Shown one piece after another: positions 4,427-61,271 of a stretch of DNA of 64,000 nt. How positions within the stretch are numbered: the stretch's first letter is position 1; each line of letters opens with the position of its first letter. Origin of the DNA: Candidatus Latescibacterota bacterium. GTDB taxonomy: Bacteria; Latescibacterota; UBA2968; UBA8231. Both the position numbers and the translations under genes were made by a program. The stretch spans positions 576,001-640,000 of the forward strand of contig OY730476.1 of assembly GCA_963422735.1 (NCBI GenBank). The letters run 5' to 3'. Under the pieces are notes generated by a model. It was not told the DNA's origin and ran no database searches. It saw nothing but the letters and a program-made list of their open reading frames with translations.

Positions 4427-6118
4427 ATGCGGTTTGTACTAGCCGTGATTTGGGCGTTGGCAGGGTGCGGGGGCAAGGAGACGCGGCCCAGTTTCGTCGA
4501 TGTGGCTGCCGAAGCGGGCGTTCGCTTGCGCACAGTATCTGGGACGCCGCAAAAAGAGCACATCGTCGAATGCAACACGGGCGGGACGGCCCTTTTAGAC
4601 TACGACCTAGATGGGGACGTGGATATTTTTATCGTCAACGGCACCAGCCTTGCCGGATATGCCCCGGGCCGCGAACCCCGCGCCGAGCTGTACCGCAACG
4701 ACGGTGCTTGGTGCTTTACAGGCGTTGGTCGCGAGGCTGGCGTCGCCCGCGTGGGCTGGGGCATGGGGGTTGCGGCGGCCGACTACAACGCCGATGGGTG
4801 GCCCGATCTGTACCTATCGAACTACGGCCCCAACGCCCTGTACGAAAACGAAGGCGACGGCACGTTTGTCGATGTGGCGGCCGAGCGGGGCGTGGATTTT
4901 GGTGGCTGGAGCTCGTCTGCGGCCTTTGGCGACTACGACCTCGACGGCGACTTGGACTTCTACTTGGCCAATTACATCGACTTTGATCCGGCGTTTCGCC
5001 CGGCCGATCCGAGCTATTGCACTTGGCGAGGGCTGGACGTATTCTGCGGCCCGCGCGGGATGCCGGGCGAGCGGGATCAATTCTATCGCAACGACGGCCC
5101 TAGCGCGGGTTGGGCCTTTGCCGAGGCCAGTGCGGCCTTTGGCGTTGCTGACTACGAGTACTATGGTTTTGCCGCGCTGGCTGGCGACTGGGACGAGGAC
5201 GGTGACTTGGACATTTACATTGCCAATGATTCGACGCCGAATGTGCTCTACCGCAACGACCGGAGCGCGTTTGTGGACGTGTCGCTCCTGTCGGCAACTG
5301 CGTACAGCGAGGACGGCCGCGAACAGGGTGGCATGGGCTTGGCGGCCGGAGACTACGATCGCGACGGCGATTTCGACCTCTTCGTCACCAATTTCTCGCA
5401 CGACAACAACGCGCTCTACGAGAACAATGGCCGGGGGTTTTTCACCGACGTCAGCTTCATCTCGGTTCTAGGCCGTGCGAGTATCAGTTCCTTGGGATGG
5501 GGAACGGGTTTTTTCGATTGCGACAACGACGGCGACGACGACCTGTTCGTCGCCAACGGCCACGTGTACCCGGCCGTTGACCGCCGCGACTTAGGCACCC
5601 ACTACGCCCAGCGCAATCACTTGTTTGAGAATCGCGACGGTGCATTTGTCGAGGTCGGCGCGGCGGTAGGCCGAGGTTTGGCAGTGGAAAAGTCGAGCCG
5701 CGGCGCGGCCTTCGGGGATTTGGACAACGATGGCGACTTGGACCTTGTGGTGGTCAACATCGACGACACGCCGACCTTGCTGCGCAACGACGGAGGCAAT
5801 CGCCACAACTATTTGATGGTGAGGCTGCTCGGTGCCGGCGACAATACAGACGCCATTGGTGCTCGGGTCGCGGTTGCGGTGGGTGGCGCAGTGCAGATGC
5901 GGGAGGTGCGCGCGGGCACGGGGTACCTGTCGCAGGACGACCTGCGGCTGCACTTCGGCTTGGGACGGGCGACCGCGGCCGACTCCCTCGTGGTGCGCTG
6001 GCCCGATGGGGTGGAAGAGCGCATCGACGGGGTGGCGGGCAACCGGCTGATTACTATCCAGCGCGGCGCGGGCCTCGTCGCCGAGGGGTTTGGGCCGGTG
6101 CCGAGGCTGGAGCCGTGA
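4427..6118 (+). CDS. CRTAC1-family lipoprotein (FG-GAP/VCBS propeller + ASPIC/UnbV)
   Basis: LAGC lipobox; repeated DYDLDGDLD motifs; SRGAAFGDLDNDGDLD; C-terminal AIGARV...GYLSQ...LHFGLG...VRWPDG. Confidence 0.92.
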   Translation: MRFVLAVIWALAGCGGKETRPSFVDVAAEAGVRLRTVSGTPQKEHIVECNTGGTALLDYDLDGDVDIFIVNGTSLAGYAPGREPRAELYRNDGAWCFTGVGREAGVARVGWGMGVAAADYNADGWPDLYLSNYGPNALYENEGDGTFVDVAAERGVDFGGWSSSAAFGDYDLDGDLDFYLANYIDFDPAFRPADPSYCTWRGLDVFCGPRGMPGERDQFYRNDGPSAGWAFAEASAAFGVADYEYYGFAALAGDWDEDGDLDIYIANDSTPNVLYRNDRSAFVDVSLLSATAYSEDGREQGGMGLAAGDYDRDGDFDLFVTNFSHDNNALYENNGRGFFTDVSFISVLGRASISSLGWGTGFFDCDNDGDDDLFVANGHVYPAVDRRDLGTHYAQRNHLFENRDGAFVEVGAAVGRGLAVEKSSRGAAFGDLDNDGDLDLVVVNIDDTPTLLRNDGGNRHNYLMVRLLGAGDNTDAIGARVAVAVGGAVQMREVRAGTGYLSQDDLRLHFGLGRATAADSLVVRWPDGVEERIDGVAGNRLITIQRGAGLVAEGFGPVPRLEP

Positions 6119-7752
6119 AGGCGCGCTACGGAATGGTCCTGCTGCTGTGTTGCAATGCCGCCGCGGAATCGCGCTTTGTCGATATCGCGCAATCTGCTGG
6201 AGTCGATTTTGTCCACCGCAATGGCGCGGCCGGCGCGCGCTATTTGCCCGAGACCTACGGCTCGGGTGCTGCATTTTTGGATTTCGACGGCGATGGTGCG
6301 CTCGACCTCTACTTGGTCAACTCCGGGCGGCTGCCCGGGCTATCGAACGCGCCCGCAGCGGCCAACGCGCTCTTTCGCAACGAAGGTGCGGGCCGCTTCT
6401 CAGAGCAGACGGCGCGGGCTGGCGTCGGCGACCGCGGCTACGGCATGGGTGCGGCCGTCGGCGACTACGATAACGACGGCCAGGCCGACTTCTACGTCAC
6501 CAATTTTGGGGCCAACGCGCTCTTCCACAATCGCGGACAGGGCCGCTTTGCCGATGTCACGGCTGCGGCTGGCGTCGGCTGCCCGGGGTGGGGGACGAGC
6601 GCGGCTTTTGCCGATGTGGATCTCGACGGGGATTTGGACCTATTCGTCGGCAACTACCTCGACTATCCGACCGCCGATCCGCTCGTGTGTCGGATCGGCA
6701 ACAGCGAGGAGCGGCTCTACTGCGACCCCCGCAAGTTCGACGGCGAGGTCGATCGCCTCTATATCAACGAAGGCCGCGCCGGCGGTTGGGCTTTTGCCGA
6801 CCGCACGGCGGCCTTCGGCCTCGCCAGCACGGCCGGCAAGGAACTGGGGGTCGTCTTTGGCGACTACGACCAAGATGGAGATCCCGATCTGTACTTGGCC
6901 AACGACCTCGTGCCCAACATGCTCTACCGCAACGACGGCTCGCTCTTTGTCGATCGGGGGCTTGCCAGCGGTACCAGCCTCAACGGCGAAGGGGGCGTCG
7001 AGGCTGGGATGGGCGTTGACATGGCCGATGCAGACGGCGACGGGGACTTGGATTTGTTCGCGACCAACTTCCAATGGGAGAGCAATACCTTGTACCGCAA
7101 CCTAGGCGGAGGGTTCTTTGCAGACGCGACCGTGGAGTCGGGCATCGCCCGCGCCAGCATGGCCTTTCTCGGGTTTGGTACGGGGTTCTTCGACTGCGAC
7201 AACGACGGCGATCTCGACCTGTTCGTCGCCAACGGCCATGTGTACGACAACGTGGAAAAGGTCGATCGGGCGGCTGAGTACGCACAGCGCAATCAGCTTC
7301 TCGAAAACGTCGGCGCAGGTACTTTTGTAGAGCGCGGCGAGCGCGGCCCGGGCCTCGCGCTGGTACAGGTCAGTCGCGGGGCCGCATTCGGCGACATCGA
7401 CAGCGATGGCGACTTGGATATTGCGGTGAGCAACTCCAATGACCGGCCGGCCCTGTTGCGCAACGACGCAGAGGCCAGCGGGTGGTTGGGGCTTAAGTTG
7501 CAAGGCGCGGCGAGCAACCGCGACGCGATTGGGGCGCGGATCGCGCTGACCAGTGGCGGTCGCACCCTCGTACGCGAGGTGCGCCGCAGCGCGAGCTATC
7601 TGTCGTCGAACGACCCGCGCGTGCTTTTTGGCCTCGGCAACGCCGAGGTCGCCGAGCGAGTTGAGATTCGCTGGCCATCTGGTGCCGTCCAAGTCGTCGA
7701 GGCCCTGCCTGGGCGGCAATACGTGGTCATGGAGGAGGATACTAGTCGGTGA
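6115..7752 (+). CDS. CRTAC1-family protein (FG-GAP + ASPIC/UnbV)
   Basis: Same architecture (DFDGDGALD, DYDNDG, AIGARI, SYLSS, FGLG, IRWPSG); GTGA overlap with the upstream gene. Confidence 0.92.
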   Translation: MKARYGMVLLLCCNAAAESRFVDIAQSAGVDFVHRNGAAGARYLPETYGSGAAFLDFDGDGALDLYLVNSGRLPGLSNAPAAANALFRNEGAGRFSEQTARAGVGDRGYGMGAAVGDYDNDGQADFYVTNFGANALFHNRGQGRFADVTAAAGVGCPGWGTSAAFADVDLDGDLDLFVGNYLDYPTADPLVCRIGNSEERLYCDPRKFDGEVDRLYINEGRAGGWAFADRTAAFGLASTAGKELGVVFGDYDQDGDPDLYLANDLVPNMLYRNDGSLFVDRGLASGTSLNGEGGVEAGMGVDMADADGDGDLDLFATNFQWESNTLYRNLGGGFFADATVESGIARASMAFLGFGTGFFDCDNDGDLDLFVANGHVYDNVEKVDRAAEYAQRNQLLENVGAGTFVERGERGPGLALVQVSRGAAFGDIDSDGDLDIAVSNSNDRPALLRNDAEASGWLGLKLQGAASNRDAIGARIALTSGGRTLVREVRRSASYLSSNDPRVLFGLGNAEVAERVEIRWPSGAVQVVEALPGRQYVVMEEDTSR

Positions 7753-9134: not shown

Positions 9135-10893
9135 TAATGCGAGAAAATGGGCGGGGCTTGCAGCCTGCGCGTTGCTTTTTTGTTGCGCCCAAGAGCCGGC
9201 GGCCCCGGTCGCAGAGGAAGGCGGCTTAGTGGTGGCTGGTACTGCTTTGGCGCAAGTCGGCGACGACCTAATCGACGAGCGCACATTCCGCCGCTACGAA
9301 GCCCGAATCCAACCGCAGCACCGCTCGTTAGCGCAAGGCGTGGAAAAGCACCGCGAGCACCTGATGAGTTTGATCGACATCAAGCTCATGGTACGCGAGG
9401 CATATATGCGGGGACTGGACAAAAATCCCGAGTGGATCAAGGCCGTGGATCTCGCCCGGCACAAGGCCATGGTCGAAGCCTATCTACGCGAGCAGGTCGG
9501 CCTGCAAATCGAGGTTTCCGAAGACGAACTGAGGGCCAATTTTGCCGCGCACCCGGCCCGCTACGCAGTGCGCGGCGCGCACATCCTGCTCGACAGCCGG
9601 GCCCGTGCCGATTCTATCTACGCGGAGATCGAGGCCGGCCGGGCCACCTTTGAGGACATGGCGCGCGAGCACTCGCTGGACGCGGCGACCGCGGCCGATG
9701 GGGGATGGTTTGCTTCGTACTATGCCTTCGATCGGGTCTCAGACCGAGTGTACGAGCGCGTGTTCTCGTTGGACGCAGGCGAGGTTAGCCGGCCCTTTCG
9801 CACGCCCCAAGGCTGGGAGATCGCCAAGGTCGTTGATAAGGACTTGGTGTCTTTTGAGAAGTATCGCTCGGTGATTCAGCGAGCGACTTTCCTCGAAAAA
9901 ATCGAGAACTTGCGCAGCGACCACATCGACAAGCTGATCGCCGAGAGCGGCTTGCGCCCGGTGGGGGAACAGGTGCGGCGCTTTGTCGTGGCTTGGAACG
10001 AACAGCCTGGCGCGCCGCCGCTTGCGCCCGAGGAGTGGGCCGCCCCGCTCTACGAGTACGATGGCGGTGTCATCACCGTGCAGCAGGGCAGTTATTTGCT
10101 GCACAATACGCGGCTGGGTCGCGCCCAAATCGACAGTGCCTTGCTCGACGACCGCGTGCGTCGACGCGGAGCACCGGATCTGCTCTTGGGCTTGGCGGCC
10201 GAGCGCGGTGGATACGCCGAGCGGCCAGAGGTACAGGAGAAGATGGAAGCCGAAAAGGAGCGGCTGTTGCTCCAAGGGCTGTGGGAAGAGCTGCTCGAAG
10301 GTGCCCTAGCAGTAAGCGAAGAGGAAGCGCACGCCCACTACGAGGCGCATCCAGAGATGTATTGGGCACCGGAGGAAATCGTCGTCCAAGAAATCATGGT
10401 TGCCGACGAGTCGCTCGCCCGAGATCTGCTGGAGCAAATTCGCAATGGGGCCGACATGGGCGCACTGGCGACTAAGCACAGCATCCGGCGCGACGCGGAT
10501 GAAAACGGCGGCCTCTACGCGCTGCGCGCATTTGAAAAGATCGTTTACAAGGAGCTGATGGACGCGGCCATAGCCGCGCCCGAAAGGGAATTGCAAGGCC
10601 CGATTGAATTGGTTGACCCCTTGCCGTCTTCCCTGCGCGACCCTCGGCCTTTGGAAAGGGCCTTTTCGATCTTCAAAGTCTTGCAGCACCGGCCCAAGCG
10701 AGTGCAAGAATACGACTTGAGCCAACAGAAAGCCCACTACTTGGCCCGTCAAGCAAAGCAGCAGCGCGAATTGCGCACCCTCAACCTTGAGTTGCGAGAG
10801 AAGTGGCACACTGCATGGGGCATTAACGGCGATGCGCTCGCTCAGTACGCGCTTGCCAATGTTGATAAAGAGAAAACAGCGGCGGCTCGGTAA
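9127..10893 (+). CDS. PpiC/parvulin-type peptidyl-prolyl isomerase, two rotamase domains (PrsA/SurA-like), probable lipoprotein
   Basis: AHILL...FEDMAREHSLD...GG...GEVSRPFRTPQGWEI; second degenerate domain QEIMV...GADMGALATKHS...NGG; LLFCC lipobox-like. Confidence 0.85.
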   Translation: MTSNARKWAGLAACALLFCCAQEPAAPVAEEGGLVVAGTALAQVGDDLIDERTFRRYEARIQPQHRSLAQGVEKHREHLMSLIDIKLMVREAYMRGLDKNPEWIKAVDLARHKAMVEAYLREQVGLQIEVSEDELRANFAAHPARYAVRGAHILLDSRARADSIYAEIEAGRATFEDMAREHSLDAATAADGGWFASYYAFDRVSDRVYERVFSLDAGEVSRPFRTPQGWEIAKVVDKDLVSFEKYRSVIQRATFLEKIENLRSDHIDKLIAESGLRPVGEQVRRFVVAWNEQPGAPPLAPEEWAAPLYEYDGGVITVQQGSYLLHNTRLGRAQIDSALLDDRVRRRGAPDLLLGLAAERGGYAERPEVQEKMEAEKERLLLQGLWEELLEGALAVSEEEAHAHYEAHPEMYWAPEEIVVQEIMVADESLARDLLEQIRNGADMGALATKHSIRRDADENGGLYALRAFEKIVYKELMDAAIAAPERELQGPIELVDPLPSSLRDPRPLERAFSIFKVLQHRPKRVQEYDLSQQKAHYLARQAKQQRELRTLNLELREKWHTAWGINGDALAQYALANVDKEKTAAAR

Positions 10894-10930
10894 ATTTTTT
10901 ATACTATTTAGCCTAGCGGGAGAAGAAATT

Positions 10931-12976
10931 ATGAAACGTCTAGCGGATTTGTGGCTTTGGTTCCTCGCCGCAGCATCGGCTACGAGCGCGGCGGCAGACA
11001 TTTCTCTATGGCAGATCGGTGGGAGCGGCCTCCGCTGGGCCGATAGCGACTCGGCCCAAGTAATGATCGACTTTGCTGGCCCGAATAACTCGATCCAGCC
11101 GGTGATGGTCAGCGCGGATACGACGGTCTTTCCTCTGCTCTACAATTGGTCGCCAAAAAAGAATCCAGATGAGCTGGGTTTTGTCGATGGGGAGCGGCCC
11201 CGCGCTTGGAAGGGCGGGGCCGGCACCTCTTCGACGGTTGACAACGCGCTCAACCTCATCGACGGCAACGGTGCGACGTACAATCCGGTGACCAGCAACA
11301 GTATTAACAACGAGTACTACACCATTGATTTGGGGGTGCCGGTGCCGCTGTTTCGCTTTGCCATGAGTACGCCAGACAAGGGGTTCTACCGCTCAGATGG
11401 GACTCCGCTAGAGGAAGACGCCATCCCGGCTTATGAGGTGTCAATCGCCGCGGACACCAACAACGATGTGCTGAATACGTCCAATCCCATCGGCGAAATC
11501 ATCGCCGATGCGCGCGAGAATGTCATCTCCAAGATAGTGGCTGATTTTCCCCTGCAATACGTGCGCTACGTGCGCTACAAGCGCAAGAATTCGATCCTCG
11601 ACGAGGCGACCAATCAGTCGTCCGGGCATTCGGGTACGGCGCGCAAGGGGACGGTGGCCGAGTTCTTCCTCTGGGGAGAGGGAATCCCCAAGCGGGCCAC
11701 TTATAAGACGACTATTTTCGATCTCGGCACGGTCGTCAACTTCGGTCGGCTGTTCTGGAAGGCCACGCCTATGCGCCTAGTTGACGGCGTGGCCGAGGAA
11801 GCCCCGGACGCCAACGCGCAGATCGAGGTCGAAGTGCGCACCGGGATCGACTCAGATCCGGACATCTACTACGAGTTCACGGATATGGGGACGCGCGTCG
11901 TCGTCGCGCAAGACCGCTATCAGGGCGTGCTGAAAAACCAGAGCGCGTCCGTTACTAATGCCGACGGGCTGGGCGGCACCCTGACCCTCTCTACTCGGCC
12001 CAAGCCAGGGCTTCGCGCCGGCATTGAGTACGACCAACAAAACTGGACGTTCTGGTCCTTTCCAACGACCGAGTCCGGCCGACCTCTCAACCTCAACCGA
12101 GGGTCGTATTTGCAGGTCAAAGTGGTGCTGCACAGCGAGCGGTTCGACGAGTTCGTGCGCCTCGATTCCCTGTGGATTGAGACCTCGCCGATCTTGGCCA
12201 GCCGCGTCGTAGCCGAGGTGGCCCAGCTCGGCCAGCCCAACCCGGCGCACGGCGTGGCCGAGGTCGCCTTGGGCGAGATGACGGACTTCACCTACGATAT
12301 CAAGGCCGATTTTGCGGCTGGGGAGGTAGGTTTTGACGCCCTGCGGATTAGCACCGGCAGCGCGCAGACCGAGTTCAAGGGGCTGGAAATGGATGGAGTT
12401 GCAACCGACCCGGCCGGAGTCGCGATTGCGGACGGCGGCTTTGTCGTGCAATTGCCGCAGCGCATAAGCAGTGCCCACAACCCGAGCTTGCGGGTGACCT
12501 TTTCCGCCGAGGTCTTCGACTTTGCGCGCACCTTTGAAGGCGAAGTCTTCAACACCGACAGCGCAGACCTGCCGCAGCCGGTTGAGGACGGGGACGTCAG
12601 CGACGCGATCGGCACCAATAGTCTGCGGGTCTTGGCTGTGCGCGCGGCCAATCCGCAGTTAGTGCAGAATGTGCAGTTTTCCAGCGACGTGATCACTCCC
12701 AACGGCGACGGGGTCAACGACGAGTTGGTCATTTCCTACTCGCTTTTCGCGCTGCCGCAATCGGTGCCTGTACAGTTGCAAGTACTCTCGCTGGACGGCC
12801 GTCGGGTGGCTCAAATCCAGCGCGGCCAGCAAGGGTCCGGCCCCCAGCAATTGCACTGGGATGGACGGGACCAGCTCGGTGAGACACTCGCCCCGGGCCT
12901 GTACCTTTTGGGGATCGGCATCGAGGCCGAAAACAAAAGTGCCCTACAGCTGCGGCCCATCAACCTCGCCTATTAG
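10931..12976 (+). CDS. secreted protein with discoidin-like domain and PNGDGxND/FlgD-Ig C-terminal domain
   Basis: Signal peptide MKRLADLWLWFLAAASATSAAA; TIDLG motif; ITPNGDGVND...WDGRD...LAPGLY...INLAY*. Confidence 0.85.
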   Translation: MKRLADLWLWFLAAASATSAAADISLWQIGGSGLRWADSDSAQVMIDFAGPNNSIQPVMVSADTTVFPLLYNWSPKKNPDELGFVDGERPRAWKGGAGTSSTVDNALNLIDGNGATYNPVTSNSINNEYYTIDLGVPVPLFRFAMSTPDKGFYRSDGTPLEEDAIPAYEVSIAADTNNDVLNTSNPIGEIIADARENVISKIVADFPLQYVRYVRYKRKNSILDEATNQSSGHSGTARKGTVAEFFLWGEGIPKRATYKTTIFDLGTVVNFGRLFWKATPMRLVDGVAEEAPDANAQIEVEVRTGIDSDPDIYYEFTDMGTRVVVAQDRYQGVLKNQSASVTNADGLGGTLTLSTRPKPGLRAGIEYDQQNWTFWSFPTTESGRPLNLNRGSYLQVKVVLHSERFDEFVRLDSLWIETSPILASRVVAEVAQLGQPNPAHGVAEVALGEMTDFTYDIKADFAAGEVGFDALRISTGSAQTEFKGLEMDGVATDPAGVAIADGGFVVQLPQRISSAHNPSLRVTFSAEVFDFARTFEGEVFNTDSADLPQPVEDGDVSDAIGTNSLRVLAVRAANPQLVQNVQFSSDVITPNGDGVNDELVISYSLFALPQSVPVQLQVLSLDGRRVAQIQRGQQGSGPQQLHWDGRDQLGETLAPGLYLLGIGIEAENKSALQLRPINLAY

Positions 12977-54764: not shown

Positions 54765-56207
54765 TTAAATGCCCAAGCGGTTTTTATAGGGCAGAGGGCG
54801 TCCCTCGGCATCGAGTAAGGGCTGCGGCGGAGCTTTCTGTTGGGTTAGTAAGCTGACGATTACTAAGGCGAAGGCGGAAAAAGGCACAGCCAAAAGGTCG
54901 GCCGGCAAATCCGCGGGAAGCATCCTCAGTACCTGCCAAGCGCACAGGCCGACCCCTATGGAAGCTAAGGCCCCGGGGCCGTTGCTTTTGGGCCACCACA
55001 ACCCAGCGGTTAGCGGGACGAACAGCGATGCGAGGAGCACGGACCAAGAGTTGACCATCAAGCCGTAAACCGAAGCGGTCCGGAGAGCCAACAGTAGAGA
55101 TACCACACCCAAGAGGAGGACGGACAAGCGCGTCAGGCGCAGAGACGACCGTTCTTCGGCATCGGGTTTGAAGTAGCGAAGGAGATCCCAGCCAATGACG
55201 CTCGCTGGAGCGAGGAGAGCACTATCGGCACTGGACAGGAGGGCCGAGACGAGGGCACCCATAAAGAGGATCAAGGCCAGATCGGGGAGGTACTCTAGTG
55301 CGAGGGCCATCATAACCAGGTCGGGGTCGGCCAAATCCGGGAGAATGACTGCACCTGCCATGCCGAGAAAAACGGGCAACAGCCCGACCGTGATATAAAG
55401 CAGACCAGCAAGATAAGCGCTGCGATAAGCCACCTTTTCGTCGCGGCTGGATAGACTGCGCTGGATTAGGTCTTGGCCCGCTAGGTTGCCGAGGCCGATG
55501 ACCAGCCAGTCGCGCGTATAGGCCAACCAACTGGCTGTGTCGCCGCGAGGATAGAAATCGAAGCGGGAGGCCGGGATTTGGGCGACGAGGGTCTTCCAGC
55601 CGCCCATGTCACCGAGGAGGATCGGTGTCAAAATGAACAGCCCGAGCACGAGGACGGTCACTTGGACGAAGTCGGTTAGCGTGACGGCCCACATGCCGCC
55701 GGCCCAAGTGTAGATTAGCACGATGACTGCGGCTGCGCAGATGCCGAGAGCGGGATCGATGCCGGTCAGGCTCTGCAGGATCCGCCCAAAGGCCACCAAG
55801 AGAGAACCGGTCCAGCCGACATAGGCGGGAATGGTGCAAAGACTGGCCAGCAGGCCCGCCTGCGGGCCGAAGCGGCGGCTAAAAAAGGATGCGATCGTCA
55901 TCAAGCCCATGCGCCGCATTAGCCGGACGTAAAAGAGGCCAGCGATAAATAGGCACAAAGCCGCGCCAAAAGGGTCGGCAACGACCGCGAGGATGCCCCC
56001 TTTGTATGCAGCACTCGCAGCGCCAATGCAGATTCCACCGCCAAACCACGTCGCAGCAAGAGTTGCGGTACAGAGCAACAGAGGCAGACGTTGGCCGGCG
56101 ACGATGAAGTCAGTCGGGCCGTGGACGCGGCGACCAGCGTATAAGCCAACGCCGAGCATCACCGCGAGATAGACAACCAAGCCGATCAAGACCAATGGAT
56201 TGGCCAT
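54765..56207 (-). CDS. sodium:solute symporter family protein
   Basis: FIVAG, ATWFGG, YTWAGGMWAVTLTDFVQ, QDLIQR, SALLSSADS. Confidence 0.9.
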   Translation of the reverse strand: MANPLVLIGLVVYLAVMLGVGLYAGRRVHGPTDFIVAGQRLPLLLCTATLAATWFGGGICIGAASAAYKGGILAVVADPFGAALCLFIAGLFYVRLMRRMGLMTIASFFSRRFGPQAGLLASLCTIPAYVGWTGSLLVAFGRILQSLTGIDPALGICAAAVIVLIYTWAGGMWAVTLTDFVQVTVLVLGLFILTPILLGDMGGWKTLVAQIPASRFDFYPRGDTASWLAYTRDWLVIGLGNLAGQDLIQRSLSSRDEKVAYRSAYLAGLLYITVGLLPVFLGMAGAVILPDLADPDLVMMALALEYLPDLALILFMGALVSALLSSADSALLAPASVIGWDLLRYFKPDAEERSSLRLTRLSVLLLGVVSLLLALRTASVYGLMVNSWSVLLASLFVPLTAGLWWPKSNGPGALASIGVGLCAWQVLRMLPADLPADLLAVPFSAFALVIVSLLTQQKAPPQPLLDAEGRPLPYKNRLGI

Positions 56208-56255
56208 GGCAAAATCCTTTTCGAAGATTTGTTATAATAACTAAAGGAGTAAAAA

Positions 56256-56291
56256 TGGCCAATGGCGCCAGCCAAGTGGCGAATCTGGCCA
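56256..56291 (+). promoter_or_regulatory. tandem palindromic upstream activator sites
   Basis: TGGCCAATGGCGCCA (56256-70) and TGGCGAATCTGGCCA (56277-91): both TGGC-N7-GCCA, 21 bp apart, about 80-110 bp upstream of the -24 box. Confidence 0.6.
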
Positions 56292-56367
56292 TTAACAAGT
56301 AATAATTCGATCTATGTTTTTTCTATAATAAATTGGGCTGTAATAAATTATGGGTGTGCTAGTGCTT

Positions 56368-56384
56368 TTGGCACGGCCCTTGCA
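56368..56384 (+). promoter_or_regulatory. sigma54 (-24/-12) promoter of pspA
   Basis: TTGGCACGGCCCTTGCA, a match to TGGCAC-N5-TTGCW, preceded by an AT-rich tract. Confidence 0.88.
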
Positions 56385-56434
56385 AGGATAGGTACAGCGC
56401 ATGATAAACTCCACTCAATCAAGGAAGGTGTACA

Positions 56435-57109
56435 ATGGCTAAGGGAGCCTTCGCGAGGATAAGCGATATCCTCAAGTCCAATATCAACGAGATGCTCGAC
56501 CGGGCCGAAGAGCCGGATAAGATGATCCGCCAGATGGTGCGGGACATGGAAGAGGCGGTCGGCAAGGCCACCGCTTCGGTAGGGACCGCTGTGGCCAACC
56601 ACAAGCGGCTCGAACGCCAGTTCAACGACAAGCAAAGCCAGGTCGCCGAATGGCAGCGCAAGGCTGAACGGGCGGTGGAAGCAGGCGAGGATGCGCTGGC
56701 GCGACGTGCGCTGGAGCGCAAGGCAGTTTTTGCCAAAGCTGCTGAGAATCTGGCTCCGGCTCTGGAGGAGAGTCGGCAGACGGCCGAGCAATTGCGCGAG
56801 CAGCTACGCGAGCTAAAGACCAAGCTCGAAGAAGCGCGGACCCGACAGGGCACGTTGATCGCTCGCCACCAAGCTGCCCAAGCCCGCAAGCGTCTAGCCC
56901 AAAGCATTTCCGGGTTGGGTCAGGATGCCTTTTCCAGCTTTGAACGCTTTGAGCAGAAAGTCGAAGAGAGCGAGGCAGAGGCTGCCGCGCACGTGGAGAT
57001 CTCGGGCGAGATGGAAGACGTTGAGAAAGAGATCCGCCAAATCGAAGTCGATCACAGTGTTGACGACGAATTGAAGGCCCTAAAGGACAAGATGAAGAAA
57101 GATAAGTAG
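56435..57109 (+). CDS. pspA: PspA/IM30 family protein
   Basis: FARISDILKSNINEMLDRAEEPDKMIRQ, G.DALARRAL.RK, FERFEQKV, VDDEL.ALK. Confidence 0.93.
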   Translation: MAKGAFARISDILKSNINEMLDRAEEPDKMIRQMVRDMEEAVGKATASVGTAVANHKRLERQFNDKQSQVAEWQRKAERAVEAGEDALARRALERKAVFAKAAENLAPALEESRQTAEQLREQLRELKTKLEEARTRQGTLIARHQAAQARKRLAQSISGLGQDAFSSFERFEQKVEESEAEAAAHVEISGEMEDVEKEIRQIEVDHSVDDELKALKDKMKKDK

Positions 57110-57163
57110 CGCAATGGCCCGCAGCATGTTGTGCGGTCTTTTGAATTAGGAGAACTAACGGAT

Positions 57164-57682
57164 ATGAAGATGAGATCGCCTAACGCGACAAAAAGCGAGG
57201 TGAGAAGTGCTATGGAAGGGGGATTCAAGCGCCTAGGTGCTCTTTTTCTCAAGGTAATGGCCGTGCCGCTGGTGCCGCTGGGGCTGGGGTTTATGCTCTA
57301 CGGACTTTTTCAGATCCTCCATGCCGATGGTCCAGAGTCCCATTTCGAGTTTTTTGCCATTGGCGTCACCCAGACCATTTTTGGCAGCTTGCTCTGGATA
57401 CTGGCCAAAAAGCTCGATGCGGCCGCGCACTTGGTCCGCTACCGACGTCAACAAAACCGCGTGGTGCGTCTGGCCCAGAAGAGGAATGGCCGCCTGACGG
57501 TGACCGAAACGGCCGCGGAAACCGAGCTGACGGTCGAGGAGGCTGCAGAGATCCTCAAGCGCTTGGCCGATGGGGGATTCGTCGAGGTCGAAATAACCGA
57601 TTCTGGCTTGATCGTCTATCGCTTTCCAGAAGTGCTTTTCGCGCACGAGAAACACTGGAGCCGAGGCGTCGAAAGTGCCTGA
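57164..57682 (+). CDS. two-TM protein with C-terminal winged-helix-like domain
   Basis: Two hydrophobic helices, then LAQKRNGRLTVTETAAETELTVEEAAEILKRL...VEITDSGLIVYRFPE. Confidence 0.75.
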   Translation: MKMRSPNATKSEVRSAMEGGFKRLGALFLKVMAVPLVPLGLGFMLYGLFQILHADGPESHFEFFAIGVTQTIFGSLLWILAKKLDAAAHLVRYRRQQNRVVRLAQKRNGRLTVTETAAETELTVEEAAEILKRLADGGFVEVEITDSGLIVYRFPEVLFAHEKHWSRGVESA

Positions 57683-57783
57683 TACAAATAGGCAAAGGCG
57701 GGATCAAGTGAACTGCTTTTGCCGCAATTCAATAGCACACGCTCACGGCCGGCGTGTGCGTGGCTCAGACCGGGAGGGAGCAA

Positions 57784-58056
57784 ATGAATGGATTTTTGCA
57801 GCTTGCCATTGGTGTCTGCTTCATCATCTTGAGCAGCGGATTGGTCAGTTGGGGCAACAAGTATTACGCGAGCCGCAGGGGACGAGACAAAAAAGCCAAA
57901 CAGGAAGAGAATCGGATCGTCAAGCGGCTAGAGCGAGTTGAGCAGCGGCTGACCGAGGTGCAGGACGTGATGATCGCCCTCAGCGAAAAAATCGACTACA
58001 TGGATGAGGTGGGGGCTAAAACTCGGGAACGCCAAGAACAACGAGAGCAAGGCTAG
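57784..58056 (+). CDS. single-TM coiled-coil protein, PspB-like
   Basis: GGAGGGAG RBS; N-terminal TM, then KRLERVEQRLTEVQDVMIAL heptads. Confidence 0.65.
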   Translation: MNGFLQLAIGVCFIILSSGLVSWGNKYYASRRGRDKKAKQEENRIVKRLERVEQRLTEVQDVMIALSEKIDYMDEVGAKTRERQEQREQG

Positions 58057-58059
58057 GCT

Positions 58060-59415
58060 GTGAGTTGGCTCGACCGCGCTGTAGAGGCCTGTGAAGATGC
58101 GCGTTGGGCCGAGGCTCTAGAGTGGTGCGAGCGTGGCCTAGCGCAGGTGCCCGACGACTTGGAGCTTCAGCATCGCAAAGGGTTTTGTCTCTTGGAACTG
58201 GGGGACGAGCAAGCGGCCATTGCCGCGCTGGAAGCGGCAGCGACGAGTGGGCATCTAGCAAGCCACTACCAGCTCGGCTTGCTCGCAATGCGCCAAGGAC
58301 GGAGGAACGCCCGGTTCCGCGAGCGGTCGCTGGCACACTTTGAGGCCATCGTGCGGGCGGGCGAGGAAGGGCGCGAATACCCAGCCCTCGACCGCGTCTT
58401 TTTCGCTCTTGGCAGCCAGTACAACGAAGATCCGCAGCGGCGTGGAGAAGCCATCCGCGCGTTCCGCCAAGGGCTGGCGCTCAACCCGCTTTCCGCGGTT
58501 GGCCACAACAGCTTGGGCCAACTCTTGCTGCAAGGCGGCCAGGTGTTGGGAGCGATGGGGGAATTTAAGGTCGCCATCCAGCTCGACCCCAAGCTCGGTC
58601 AGCCATACGCGAATTTGGCCCGTTTGTTTTTTCGCCACGTAAAACCCCCTGAATTAGAACAAGAATACCAGCATATCTGCGAGGAGTTCGAGCAAAGCGC
58701 TCCACAGGTCCTCGCGCGTTTGTCGCTGGAAATGGTCGAACTGGGAAAGGAGCAGGTGTACGAGGGGTTTTACACGAAGGGACATCGCATCAAAAACCTG
58801 ATGGGGATCATCGGCAGCCGCTTGCGGGGGCTAGGACGCAAGGCCGAAGAGGCACAGCGGGGGGAATTGAATCGCTTAGGGGGCGAATACGAGGCATTGT
58901 ACGACGAATGGGTGGGGTTCTTGGAGGCGATGAAAATGGAAAAAATCCACCCGGCAGTGATCGATCTCGGGCGCTTGGTGCGCCGGGTGGCCGCCGGGTT
59001 TGGTCGCCAAACTTGGAAATCCGCGATCCAGACGCGGGTCCAAGAGGGCTTGCCGCGCGTAGAGGCCGACGAGCGGATGCTGCGCGAGGCCATTACTAAC
59101 CTCTGCCTCAACGCCTTGGAAATCCTCGAAGAAGGCTGCGGCGGCCAAGTGGTGTTGGGCACTGGCTACGACGGAGATCAATCGCTGGTCTTTATTGAGG
59201 TTGAGGACGATGGGCCAGGCATTGAGGAAGAGCATTTGGAATTGATATTCGAGCCTGGATTTACCACTAGGGAGCGGGGCAATGGCTATGGCTTGAGCAT
59301 TGCGCGCCGCATTGCCCAAGCCCATCAGGGCGTGTTGCGCGTCAAGAGCAGGAAGGGACATGGAACCGTTTTTCGGCTCGATCTGCCGCTCAACTTCGCG
59401 GGCGGCGAGACCTAG
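58060..59415 (+). CDS. soluble TPR-domain histidine kinase
   Basis: N-terminal TPRs and no TM; H-box GHRIKN, N-box TNLCLNA, EDDGPGI, IFEPGFTT, GNGYGL. Confidence 0.88.
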   Translation: MSWLDRAVEACEDARWAEALEWCERGLAQVPDDLELQHRKGFCLLELGDEQAAIAALEAAATSGHLASHYQLGLLAMRQGRRNARFRERSLAHFEAIVRAGEEGREYPALDRVFFALGSQYNEDPQRRGEAIRAFRQGLALNPLSAVGHNSLGQLLLQGGQVLGAMGEFKVAIQLDPKLGQPYANLARLFFRHVKPPELEQEYQHICEEFEQSAPQVLARLSLEMVELGKEQVYEGFYTKGHRIKNLMGIIGSRLRGLGRKAEEAQRGELNRLGGEYEALYDEWVGFLEAMKMEKIHPAVIDLGRLVRRVAAGFGRQTWKSAIQTRVQEGLPRVEADERMLREAITNLCLNALEILEEGCGGQVVLGTGYDGDQSLVFIEVEDDGPGIEEEHLELIFEPGFTTRERGNGYGLSIARRIAQAHQGVLRVKSRKGHGTVFRLDLPLNFAGGET

Positions 59416-59436
59416 CCTTTCAGTGGTTGAACGAGG

Positions 59437-60861
59437 ATGGGCATGGCAAGCAAAAAACAGAAAGCCGTCTTAATCGCCGATGACCAACGGGAATTGCGCG
59501 AGATGTTGGCGGAGAAACTGTGCAGTTTGGGCAAGGAGGTCATCTCGTTTTCCAATGGTCAGCGGTTGCTCGGGCATCTGGCTGCTAGGCCAACGGATGT
59601 CGAACTCGTGGTGCTGGATTTGGACTTTGGCGTTGGCCAGCCCAATGGCCTCGAAGTGCTGAAAGAAATCAAAAAGTGCTGGGCCGATCTGCCGGTCATT
59701 ATTCTCACGGGCAAGGGGAGTGTTGACTTGGCGGTCGAAGCTGTGCAGGCCGGGGCTGCGGACTTTATTGAGAAGGACTTGTACGTCGAGGACAAGCTCG
59801 AAGTGGAAATGGAAAAGGTCGAGCGGATGTTGGCGGTCTTGCGCGAAAATGCCCGCCTCAAGGCAGAGAACGAAGCCCTCGACCGCGACAACACCTTTTA
59901 CCGGACCCAGCTAGGCCAGCGCTATCAGATCGTCAGTCGCAGTCCCCAAATTCAGGGCCTGCTAAAGCAAGTTGAACAAATCGCCTCCATACCGAGGCCC
60001 GTGCTGATCTGCGGCGAGCGCGGTACTGGCAAGGAGTTGATCGCCGCCGCCTTGCACTACGGGAGCAATCGCCGCGAGCGGGCCTTTGTCAAGACGAACT
60101 GCGCGGCGCTGTCGGATACTCTGCTCGAAAGCGAGCTGTTCGGCCATGAGAAGGGAGCCTTTACGGGCGCGGCCGAAATGCGCTACGGCCGCTTTGAAGC
60201 CGCCGATGGCGGTACGCTTTTTCTCGACGAAATCGGGAACACGTCGCTGGACTTTCAAAAAAATGTATTGCGCGTTATAGAATACCAAGAGTTTGAACGC
60301 ACGGGTGGGACGCAGACGATCCACGTTGACGTTCGCGTCGTGGCGGCGACCAATGCGGATCTGGAGCGGGAAATAGCCAGCGGGCAATTCCGCGCCGATC
60401 TCTACGACCGCCTGCGGTTTAGCGTGCTCCAGCTACCGCCCTTACGGGAGCGGCTCGAGGACATCCAGCCCTTGGTTACTTACTTTGCTCAGCAGCTATG
60501 CGACGAAGTGCCTGCGATTGAAAGACGCCCCTTTGCCGAAGGCATTTTGGCCACGTTAGAGACCTATGCTTGGCCGGGCAATGTGCGCGAACTCAAATTC
60601 GCCGTCGAGCGCGCGCTCTGCGTCGCGCAAGGGGATGCAGTGGTCGTGGAGGACTTGCCCCCAGAAGTGCGCGGCGGCAGTGGCGTTGCCCTTCCTGAAG
60701 GCGGCAGTTTCGACGAGCAAGTCGCGCGTGTTGAACGGGGCTTACTCGACGGCGCGCTAGCGCAGATGGGAGGGCGGCAGAAAGACGCGGCACAGCAATT
60801 GGGCTTGACCTACGATCGCTTTCGGCACTTGCTCCGCAAATACCAAATCACCGCCAAATGA
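59437..60861 (+). CDS. sigma54-dependent response regulator (REC-AAA+-HTH), PspF-like
   Basis: IADD, LDL, K receiver motifs; GERGTGKELIA, GAFTGA, LRVIEY, RADLYDRL, LGLTYDRFRHLLRKYQI. Confidence 0.92.
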   Translation: MGMASKKQKAVLIADDQRELREMLAEKLCSLGKEVISFSNGQRLLGHLAARPTDVELVVLDLDFGVGQPNGLEVLKEIKKCWADLPVIILTGKGSVDLAVEAVQAGAADFIEKDLYVEDKLEVEMEKVERMLAVLRENARLKAENEALDRDNTFYRTQLGQRYQIVSRSPQIQGLLKQVEQIASIPRPVLICGERGTGKELIAAALHYGSNRRERAFVKTNCAALSDTLLESELFGHEKGAFTGAAEMRYGRFEAADGGTLFLDEIGNTSLDFQKNVLRVIEYQEFERTGGTQTIHVDVRVVAATNADLEREIASGQFRADLYDRLRFSVLQLPPLRERLEDIQPLVTYFAQQLCDEVPAIERRPFAEGILATLETYAWPGNVRELKFAVERALCVAQGDAVVVEDLPPEVRGGSGVALPEGGSFDEQVARVERGLLDGALAQMGGRQKDAAQQLGLTYDRFRHLLRKYQITAK

Positions 60862-60889: not shown

Positions 60890-60917
60890 TTGACAGTGGG
60901 AACGCGCCGGGTATATT
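60890..60917 (+). promoter_or_regulatory. sigma70 promoter
   Basis: TTGACA-16-TATATT. Confidence 0.55.
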
Positions 60918-60947: not shown

Positions 60948-61271
60948 ATGGAAAAAGTTTACAAGGTCGAGACCACGCTTTCCCACAGCTTGGCCGAACT
61001 CTATGCCGGACTCGAAGAGGAGTTCGCCAACAAAAGCAGCATCCCCCTCTCGGACATGAACCGCACGTTGTTGCAAACGGGCTTGATCCATCACCTGACG
61101 ATGATGAGCGGATTGGGGCTGATCGAGCCTGAGAAGGCCGCGAGGCTGCACGCGTTGATCGACCAAGTAGCGAAGGATACCATACTCTGGGACATCTTGC
61201 AGATGGTGCGGACCTACTGGCGAGATTGCGGCCCTGGTGGTCCGGGCGGTTCCGATAGTCTCAAAGCCTGA
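60948..61271 (+). CDS. hypothetical 107-aa protein
   Basis: GAGG RBS, own promoter, coding-like composition. Confidence 0.75.
   Translation: MEKVYKVETTLSHSLAELYAGLEEEFANKSSIPLSDMNRTLLQTGLIHHLTMMSGLGLIEPEKAARLHALIDQVAKDTILWDILQMVRTYWRDCGPGGPGGSDSLKA

Follow-up and report, generated by a model that had tools for sequence, protein, structure and literature searches.

A pspA operon of a Latescibacterota bacterium with a receiver-bearing activator of the PspF clade and a soluble TPR histidine kinase

The pspA operon and its promoter

PspF is the textbook case of a σ54-dependent activator that lacks a sensor domain and is regulated in trans by PspA, the product of its target gene. Here, we describe a phage-shock protein (Psp) locus of Candidatus Latescibacterota, in which pspA is accompanied by genes for a soluble histidine kinase with tetratricopeptide repeats (TPR) and for an activator of the PspF clade that carries a receiver (REC) domain. 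The locus occupies positions 56256–60861 (+ strand) of a stretch of 64,000 nucleotides (“the window”; positions 576,001–640,000 of contig OY730476.1, assembly GCA_963422735.1). To our knowledge, Latescibacterota have no cultured members; the source genome is a single 4.95-Mb contig with a completeness of 95%, which encodes σ54 (rpoN), about a dozen σ54 activators and three PspA paralogues. All five genes of the locus are co-oriented in the order pspA-P2-P3-kinase-activator, where P2 and P3 denote two membrane proteins, and are separated by 60, 101, 3, and 21 bp, respectively:

56256–56270, no strand assigned: upstream activating sequence (UAS) site 1, TGGCCAATGGCGCCA, palindrome TGGC-N7-GCCA
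56277–56291, no strand assigned: UAS site 2, TGGCGAATCTGGCCA, TGGC-N7-GCCA, 21 bp start to start from site 1
56292–56368, no strand assigned: AT-rich spacer with a 12-nt direct repeat, CTATAATAAATT/CTGTAATAAATT
56369–56384, +: σ54 promoter, TGGCACGGCCCTTGCA, TGGCAC-N5-TTGCA (−24/−12), 50 bp before the pspA start
56435–57109, +: pspA, 224 aa, PspA/IM30 family (PF04012, E 4.2e-47)
57170–57682, +: P2, 170 aa from ATG, two transmembrane (TM) helices and a C-terminal cytoplasmic winged helix
57784–58056, +: P3, 90 aa from ATG, one N-terminal TM helix and a conserved cytoplasmic helix
58060–59415, +: soluble TPR histidine kinase, 451 aa, HATPase_c and TPR families (Pfam)
59437–60861, +: enhancer-binding protein with REC, AAA+, and helix-turn-helix (HTH) domains, 474 aa, PspF clade

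For P2, an alternative upstream start is possible (GTG at 57131). A preliminary description of this DNA had listed pspA, a gene for a protein with two TM helices and a winged helix, a TPR kinase and a REC-AAA+-HTH activator in one orientation, preceded by an enhancer pair and a σ54 promoter, and this inventory is borne out by Pfam matches, hydropathy and structure models as well as by the analysis of the upstream region below. The window PspA scores 161 bits with Pfam PF04012, above the gathering score of 33.9, and 161.8 bits with the NCBI equivalog model of enterobacterial-type PspA, which is under the cut-off of 242.95; it aligns with E. coli PspA along its whole length (33% identity, 221 columns).

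Paired enhancers at a distance of 20–23 bp occur at only two places in the whole genome, i.e., upstream of pspA and inside one dehydrogenase gene, and shuffled sequence yielded 0 pairs per Mb in five of five trials. The second pair (genome position 3260596) was read as a chance match, because it lies within a 2-hydroxyacid-dehydrogenase-like gene at a glycine-rich motif and has no σ54 promoter nearby; the pspA promoter is the sole intergenic place with paired enhancers. When 11 upstream regions from three families of the phylum were aligned, both palindromes were kept and GG..A......TTGC was invariant in all of them, in the midst of divergent flanks (mean column identity only 52%). The strict pattern TGGYAY-N5-YTGCW matches nine of these regions, and the remaining two are each off by one base. 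The AT-rich spacer between the enhancers and the promoter is possibly a DNA-bending region of the integration host factor type.

The same enhancer motif recurs at canonical pspF genes. Among 43 canonical divergent pspF-pspA regions (42 scanned loci from L074–L146, plus E. coli, L061 2914–3079), TGGY-N7-RCCA was found in 20 (500 shuffles: mean 0.43, maximum 4), and pairs 20–23 bp apart with at most one mismatch in each copy were found in 14 (shuffle mean 0.045). In the pspF-pspA region of E. coli, the motif occurs twice in imperfect form, ~20 bp apart and with (T/A)GCGAAT as the common half-site, and the half-site TGGCGAAT of window site 2 is present there as well. By this comparison, the enhancer motif of the window appears to be that of PspF itself. 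A TGGY-N7-RCCA consensus for canonical PspF enhancers was not found stated in those portions of the PspF and Psp literature that were consulted.

Metatranscriptome contigs from four runs of three studies cover all five genes; these contigs are 90–99% like the window and must therefore come from related strains. They bridge pspA, P2 and P3 (56401–57968), P3 and the kinase gene (57948–58865), and the kinase and activator genes (58858–59647), with the reservation that contigs from RNA libraries, which may hold DNA, cannot prove one single transcript. The bin with the enhancers and the spacer (56200–56360) is without contig cover in all four runs, and the contigs begin near 56401–56426, some of them with loose ends. 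Such starts could fit transcription from the σ54 promoter, as far as contigs that derive from relatives and cannot show transcription starts permit. A hairpin with a T-run behind pspA (57119–57146), which was picked up by a terminator scan, was rejected as an attenuator (z 0.00; 97 of 200 shuffles fold as well or better).

Several observations concern the surroundings of the operon and the other PspA proteins of this genome. The activator gene is followed by a 107-aa open reading frame (ORF; 60948–61271, +), which has no Pfam or NCBIfam match, lies behind a near-consensus σ70-type promoter (60890–60917, TTGACA-16-TATATT, 11/12) and is found downstream of the operon in four of four same-genus loci with 78–98% identity. 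The second PspA paralogue (C1:700597–701283; locus L002, 747–2205), ~68 kb away, is preceded by genes for a J-domain-like protein and a 130-aa acidic protein, both named by reading their sequences, an arrangement similar to that of the CesT/Tir-PspA class in Ravi et al. (2024; PMC11237479), as described in the accessible part of that survey. The third paralogue is located at C1:4928920–4929549. The strict σ54 pattern had no match in the loci of these two paralogues.

The activator and its relation to PspF

The activator matches the Pfam families Response_reg (PF00072, residues 11–116, E 5.1e-18), Sigma54_activat (PF00158, E 1.6e-64), AAA_lid_14 and HTH_8, the latter in its C-terminal Fis-type HTH with 22 bits, which is exactly the cut-off. 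Walker A (193–199) and GAFTGA (240–245) are intact, and the receiver residues can be read from the sequence as D15/D16, D61, T91, and K113. With this receiver pocket, including the Asp, Thr and Lys, and a kinase gene 21 bp upstream, the protein has the appearance of an NtrC-type response regulator. At the same time, its AAA+ and HTH region shares 49% identity with E. coli PspF (residues 18–325; 312 columns), compared to 41–43% identity of the activator to paralogues; the HTH is aligned to the last PspF residue, and the PspF hallmark motifs that had been pointed out in the preliminary description are present. Within its own genome, the window activator has the top score with the PspF model (332 bits, vs. 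289 for the next activator). A HMMER search with residues 160–474 against 1.84 billion representatives returned best single-stretch matches that are a mixture of proteins of ~460–476 aa and PspF-sized proteins of ~320–350 aa. Unlike the receiver-less canonical PspF, 117 of the 120 best homologues of the activator contain Response_reg; named homologues at 60–75% identity are labelled Latescibacterota or Latescibacteria, with a few labelled Gemmatimonadota, and automatic annotations call most homologues “NtrC family response regulator” and some “psp operon transcriptional activator PspF.”

Three trees were built on the AAA+-HTH region, as the preliminary description had suggested for deciding between PspF and NtrC, and all of them place the activator with PspF. 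The FastTree set of 194 rows comprised the whole set of 150 representatives, 20 sequences out of the 120 close homologues, the orthologues from the fetched loci, six E. coli activators and those own-genome paralogues that passed a 200-column filter; here, the clade with PspF and the window activator has 64 rows (support 99), including a canonical receiver-less PspF subclade of 13 rows (support 100). A quick IQ-TREE run (LG+C20+F+G4) on 91 rows combined the own-genome paralogues with 39 rows hand-picked from the FastTree set and with 43 of the 80 loci scanned, L085 being left out. It yielded a PspF clade of 54 rows (Shimodaira–Hasegawa-like approximate likelihood ratio test 99, stem 0.47) and a canonical subclade of 22 rows (support 100). 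In a careful IQ-TREE run on 63 rows, which is the quick set minus 28 rows, the PspF clade has 37 rows (100/100), a receiver-bearing pair from Kofleriaceae forms its first branch, and the canonical subclade of 11 rows (100/100) is nested inside. NtrC, AtoC, ZraR, GlrR and NorR of E. coli are outside the PspF clade in all three trees, and so are the own-genome activator paralogues (nine in the quick, eight in the careful IQ-TREE run). The comparison therefore supports that the activator belongs to the PspF clade in a wide sense, apart from NtrC, AtoC, ZraR, GlrR and NorR. A receiver-less 342-aa activator of the same genome (C1:4631543–4632571, − strand) was considered as a PspF and rejected, as it falls outside the clade; it pairs with the 353-aa representative P0201 (support 100).

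An obvious objection would be that a generic system of the NtrC/AtoC type happens to lie beside pspA and controls other genes, while another activator serves the pspA promoter. The prevailing automatic name and NCBIfam scores for AtoC and NtrC that are similar to the PspF score speak in its favor. However, the trees place the activator with PspF at 99–100 support, whereas the own-genome activators in the trees, including the receiver-less 342-aa protein, are all outside the clade; the pspA enhancer motif is that of canonical PspF promoters, and its intergenic pair occurs nowhere else in the genome; and the linkage to pspA extends across four lineages (see below). We consider a merely adjacent system to be highly improbable.

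In PspF, residues Y51, L52 and W56 form the docking patch for PspA, and variants at these positions escape inhibition; PspA was described to mimic a regulatory domain (Zhang et al., 2013; PMC3791423, in the part of the paper available to us). In our alignment, W56 is present in 22/22 canonical PspFs, but in none of 27 receiver-bearing clade members, five short in-clade forms and 37 outsiders. Canonical PspFs have Y or F at position 51 (21/22) and L or M at position 52 (22/22), and the window activator has Y208, G209 and R213 at the positions of 51, 52 and 56. Within this alignment, presence of the docking patch and absence of the receiver appear to go together. The simplest reading would be that receiver-bearing forms are controlled in cis by phosphorylation, and that the canonical branch swapped the receiver for PspA in trans. 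Alternatively, a phosphorylation switch might be combined with direct inhibition of the AAA+ domain by PspA via a surface other than the Y/L/W patch: the AAA+ domain is of the PspF clade, the window PspA can be aligned with that of E. coli over its whole length at 33% identity, and PspF has been suggested to have another site for PspA binding (PMC6003685, accessible part). Nevertheless, the primary docking residues are missing in the window activator, W56 is absent from 27/27 receiver-bearing members, and the receiver domain would already provide a regulator in cis. Such dual control is unlikely in our estimate, and control by phosphorylation in cis is the version followed here.

The receiver of the clade appears to be old, as judged from a search with receiver and linker, in which the 17 best of 54 ranked matches are all clade members, including those of Kofleriaceae and of two metagenome-assembled genomes (MAGs; L069 and L070). 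Moreover, because canonical PspF is nested among receiver-bearing lineages when the tree is rooted with the outgroup, the form with a receiver is more probably the ancestral state than a derived one. The topology thus favors receiver loss over gain, as far as weak internal branches permit, and suggests a two-component regulator as the ancestor of PspF itself. Two loci (L073 9833–11804 and L142 9956–11573) encode receiver-less activators that are in-clade, non-canonical and without W56, and that are co-oriented with and directly upstream of pspA; this arrangement may be a further wiring type or an independent receiver loss.

Distribution, kinase and membrane proteins

Twelve 12-kb regions of the phylum were fetched, 11 of which hold an orthologous activator. 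The identity of these orthologues to the window activator is 76–95% within the genus and 54–58% in two other families, compared to about 41–47% for paralogues. The gene order pspA-P2-P3-kinase-activator is found in all 11 orthologue loci from three families, with one to three copies of P3 and, in one region, a pspA that is cut by the locus edge. The twelfth region (L056) has just an activator paralogue of 44% identity and none of the other operon genes. Across the phylum, an activator orthologue (E ≤ 1e-120) is encoded in 100 of 168 genomes, distributed over the families f1 (50/75), f2 (28/31) and f4 (21/22), and none of the 39 genomes from eleven other families has it; P2 shows this family pattern as well, with 101 of 168 genomes.

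Families f2 and f4 carry an insert of ~3.5 kb between the P3 and kinase genes, with coding regions for a STAS protein, an extracytoplasmic function (ECF) sigma factor, an uncharacterized protein of 200–230 aa, which is possibly an anti-sigma factor, and an SPFH/Band 7 protein, and the activator gene is followed by a gene for a membrane SpoIIE phosphatase (e.g., L050 3050–6284; L049 6763–10629). The Psp cluster of these families is a larger envelope-stress island.

The trio of TPR kinase, REC activator and pspA is also found in Kofleriaceae, in an Armatimonadota MAG and in a deltaproteobacterial MAG. Among receiver-bearing activators that entered the trees from the scanned loci, pspA is nearby (21 bp–7.4 kb) in four of four in-clade cases, compared to 1 of 20 cases outside the clade. 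Three of the four in-clade activators have a neighboring kinase with Pfam TPR or with a full-length match to the window kinase profile. In Kofleriaceae (L067, L068), the genes for kinase, activator and PspA follow each other in this order at 19–21 bp; in the Armatimonadota-class MAG (L069), two pspA genes lie 1.5 kb from the activator gene, and in the deltaproteobacterial MAG (L070), pspA is 7.4 kb away. The kinases of these four loci match the window kinase profile well beyond the ATPase domain (124–237 bits, vs. 18–111 bits for other kinases), and those of L069 and L070 have Pfam TPR repeats. Upstream of pspA in L070, a promoter (TGGCACGGAAGCTGCA) is found at 65 bp, together with a perfect palindrome (TGGCGCCCAGCGCCA) 77 bp above the promoter and a one-mismatch copy 23 bp beyond. 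The strict σ54 pattern gave no match in L067–L069; in L067, with only 21 bp between the activator gene and pspA, the pspA promoter has to be located elsewhere. In a Nitrospiria locus (L127), pspA lies 5.5 kb from a kinase-activator pair; this activator is outside the PspF clade, and the proximity was treated as a coincidence.

The two MAG loci offer observations of their own. In L070, a gene for a REC-adenylate/guanylate cyclase (6075–7127) directly follows the PspF-like activator gene, which suggests a second output of the same kinase. In L069, the activator ORF (9962–12451) has 829 aa; the part with the REC, AAA+ and lid domains extends to about residue 428, and no Pfam match, HTH_8 included, covers the remaining ~400 residues, so this may be a fusion or an ORF call that runs on.

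The window kinase matches HATPase_c (E 5.4e-23) and many TPR families in Pfam and has no hydrophobic or TM segment. Its model (predicted local distance difference test, pLDDT, of 86) has eleven TPR-like helices (3–193), a long connecting helix, a dimerization and histidine phosphotransfer (DHp) hairpin (238–291) and an α/β catalytic and ATP-binding (CA) domain (299–443); His242 in the modeled hairpin is the candidate phospho-acceptor. H242, N347/N351, D383xGxG and G407xGxG are invariant in ten aligned kinases from four lineages. In Foldseek, the best match of the model is the DHp-CA part of ZraS (E 4e-14, 27% identity over 227 columns), followed by CckA and HK853.

Since PspA is the sole partner that is kept with kinase and activator across lineages, the TPR part (residues 1–232) was tried against PspA in a complex prediction. 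The result is “weak support” with a score of 0.56 (0.55–0.59 in three runs), compared to 0.00 for the best of three controls; at least 91% of the contacts agree between runs, and the pLDDT of the partner is at least 74. In calibration, 116 of 157 solved complexes pass the mark for such a call, as opposed to 2 of 215 mismatched pairs; both of these mismatches, and just 18 of the solved complexes, pass with scores of ≤0.60. The prediction somewhat raises the idea that PspA titrates the kinase and does not establish it, and we prefer PspA itself as the kinase input only tentatively, at a likelihood short of even. A reading of similar weight is that the TPR domain perceives another signal, such as the cytoplasmic domains of P2 or P3, mislocalized envelope proteins or a lipid-linked factor, with PspA being output only. 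In this genus, just 3 bp separate the P3 and kinase genes; P2 and the activator are distributed almost identically, and the PspA-TPR prediction is weak. On the other hand, P2 and P3 are missing from the loci of Kofleriaceae, Armatimonadota and the deltaproteobacterium, where PspA is the one conserved companion, and ~3.5 kb of other genes lie between P3 and the kinase gene in f2 and f4. We take such a signal to be quite possible, although somewhat less than an even bet.

P2 and P3 belong to no known family. Neither has a match in Pfam, P2 has none in NCBIfam, and a protein atlas search for P2 returned unnamed clusters only. P2 has two hydrophobic segments and is modeled as two long helices and a winged helix (pLDDT 77). 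Foldseek found no match for P2 at E ≤ 0.001; those listed at E ≥ 5.6e-3 are generic winged helices (MarR, ArsR, IclR, TFE). At rank 5, human ESCRT-II (3cuq_A) appears with E 9.5e-3, a root-mean-square deviation of 1.6 Å over 60 columns and 30% identity. That P2 might be a membrane-anchored ESCRT-II-like adaptor for PspA, a relative of ESCRT-III, is an unsupported lead from this structural comparison.

The P3 family has 65–112 aa, one TM helix and a conserved cytoplasmic helix (RRLTxxQDxMIxxxEK), and its genes often occur in tandem, with one to three copies. The preliminary description had called P3 “PspB-like,” which holds for its architecture, i.e., an N-terminal TM helix and a cytoplasmic helix, and fails for homology: 0/18 family members match the PspB family PF06667 even at E ≤ 10, and hhalign aligned just 19 TM columns with 11% identity. 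A pairwise comparison gave 25% identity over 72 columns (E 2e-4 for that single comparison), and jackhmmer from E. coli PspB drew in the P3 family, with E-values that mean little, because the database held only a few hundred ORFs. Neither PspB nor PspC (PF04024) had a match in the 4.95-Mb genome, with a control search for PspC that was positive in 7 of 14 known genomes, and the earlier statement that pspC is lacking thus extends to the whole genome. By analogy, P2 and P3 may be lineage-specific membrane partners with roles like those of PspB/PspC or LiaI.

A putatively phospho-switched PspF relative among known systems

We consider it probable that the locus is a Psp-type membrane-stress operon, whose σ54 promoter is driven by the receiver-bearing PspF-clade activator under the control of the cognate soluble TPR kinase. 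Membrane stress would alter the binding partner of the kinase TPR domain, upon which the kinase would autophosphorylate on His242 and the phosphate would move to Asp61 of the activator receiver. The AAA+ domain would then assemble on the two TGGC-N7-GCCA sites, ~85–105 bp upstream of the promoter, and remodel σ54 RNA polymerase at TGGCAC-N5-TTGCA. This would lead to transcription of pspA, P2 and P3, and probably of the kinase and activator genes as well, resulting in positive autoregulation. In the version with PspA as input, free PspA would hold the TPR domain, and its recruitment to the damaged membrane would release the kinase, with P2 and P3 as lineage-specific membrane partners.

Several points weigh against this proposal. 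Phosphotransfer, enhancer binding, direct activation of the pspA promoter, induction by stress and how far the operon reaches are all deduced. A basal promoter inside the operon, which would be needed if the kinase and activator genes are transcribed solely from the σ54 promoter, was not found in a scan of the + strand. Pfam HisKA has no match in the kinase, so that the DHp assignment rests on the model and the invariant His, and the PspA-TPR prediction is weak by the calibration of the method itself. P2 and P3 are confined to three Latescibacterota families, and the P2 profile had no match in 80 other loci (L067–L146). With NCBIfam models, the activator scores 362.2 bits for PspF (TIGR02974), under the equivalog cut-off of 443.55, which is about equal to AtoC (362.5) and NtrC (352); the PspF model matches just the 240-residue AAA+ core (residues 167–406). 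The branching within the PspF clade is poorly resolved (82/86 and lower; bootstrap correlation of 0.983, not fully settled), and because of these weak branches the direction of receiver gain or loss depends on outgroup rooting. Finally, the tree rows were hand-picked from the best query matches and references, which tilts the sampling towards relatives.

The preliminary description had interpreted the locus as a Psp system rewired to a third logic, in which a PspF-clade activator is switched by phosphorylation from a soluble kinase. The trees, the target gene, the enhancer motif and the missing docking patch agree with this interpretation, in which phosphotransfer is the deduced part, and the architecture stands; a local rewiring, on the other hand, is contradicted by its occurrence in 100 of 168 phylum genomes and at least three other lineages. 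The architecture is an old and widespread form. A more ambitious joint reading would take the TPR kinase and receiver-bearing PspF, with PspA feeding back on the kinase, as the ancestral circuit, and canonical PspF as a degenerate response regulator, with a single lineage, from which the proteobacterial PspF arose, losing receiver and kinase and gaining the Y/L/W patch, and with P2 perhaps acting as a membrane adaptor for the ESCRT-III-like PspA. We regard it as rather doubtful in its entirety. If it were true, PspA in trans would have taken over the inhibitory job of the lost receiver, and the system of the window would be a living example of the ancestral wiring.

Regarding the published record, as far as it was accessible to us, Ravi et al. 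(2024; PMC11237479) describe PspF variants, among them NtrC-like factors of Gammaproteobacteria that have ACT and PAS domains at the N-terminus, as well as two-component systems of the REC-HTH type with PspA; a receiver-bearing PspF with a histidine kinase does not appear in the available part of the survey text or in one of its supplementary files. According to the accessible portions of three other papers, descriptions of the PspF regulator are limited to Enterobacteriaceae, and outside this family its link to Psp is difficult to establish (Popp et al., 2022; PMC9239133); the PspF of Desulfovibrio is without an N-terminal domain (Kazakov et al., 2015; PMC4641369); and PspF is one of the activator classes that have no sensor domain (Francke et al., 2011; PMC3162934). 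In the accessible Psp and σ54 literature, we found no published description of a receiver-bearing PspF with a TPR kinase at pspA. Proteins closely related to PspF that share its enhancer motif and target gene would be ordinary phospho-switched response regulators with a dedicated soluble kinase, and the PspA-docking patch is limited to the receiver-less PspF branch in our alignment. This offers a testable account of how control by PspA in trans could have replaced a receiver in cis, an idea raised by Zhang et al. (PMC3791423, available part), and extends the wiring types of Psp beyond PspF/PspBC, LiaRS and ClgR. For Latescibacterota, the undescribed membrane proteins P2 and P3 and the TPR kinase are candidates for the sensing of membrane damage.

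Compared to the enterobacterial Psp system (divergent pspF and pspABCDE of E. coli and Yersinia), the window shares the σ54 promoter with two enhancers upstream of pspA, an AAA+ and Fis-type HTH region of one clade, TGGY-N7-RCCA sites ~21 bp apart and genes for small membrane proteins after pspA. It differs in that the activator has a receiver, lacks the Y51/L52/W56 patch and is encoded co-oriented at the end of the operon, in its cognate soluble TPR kinase, and in having P2 and P3, which are of no known family, instead of PspB and PspC. LiaR of Bacillus is not known to work through σ54. The LiaRS-LiaIH system is similar to the window in that a two-component system governs a PspA homologue, next to which a membrane-anchor protein is encoded (PMC9239133; PMC11237479, accessible parts); LiaR is a REC-HTH protein and LiaS a membrane kinase controlled by LiaF, whereas the window encodes a σ54-dependent AAA+ activator and a soluble TPR kinase. 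With ZraSR/NtrBC-type systems, the window has in common the logic of a kinase and a REC-AAA+-HTH activator, and the DHp-CA model of its kinase is closest to ZraS; in contrast to these systems, its activator falls outside the NtrC, ZraR, AtoC and GlrR groups, its kinase is without a membrane or periplasmic sensor, and its putative target is pspA.

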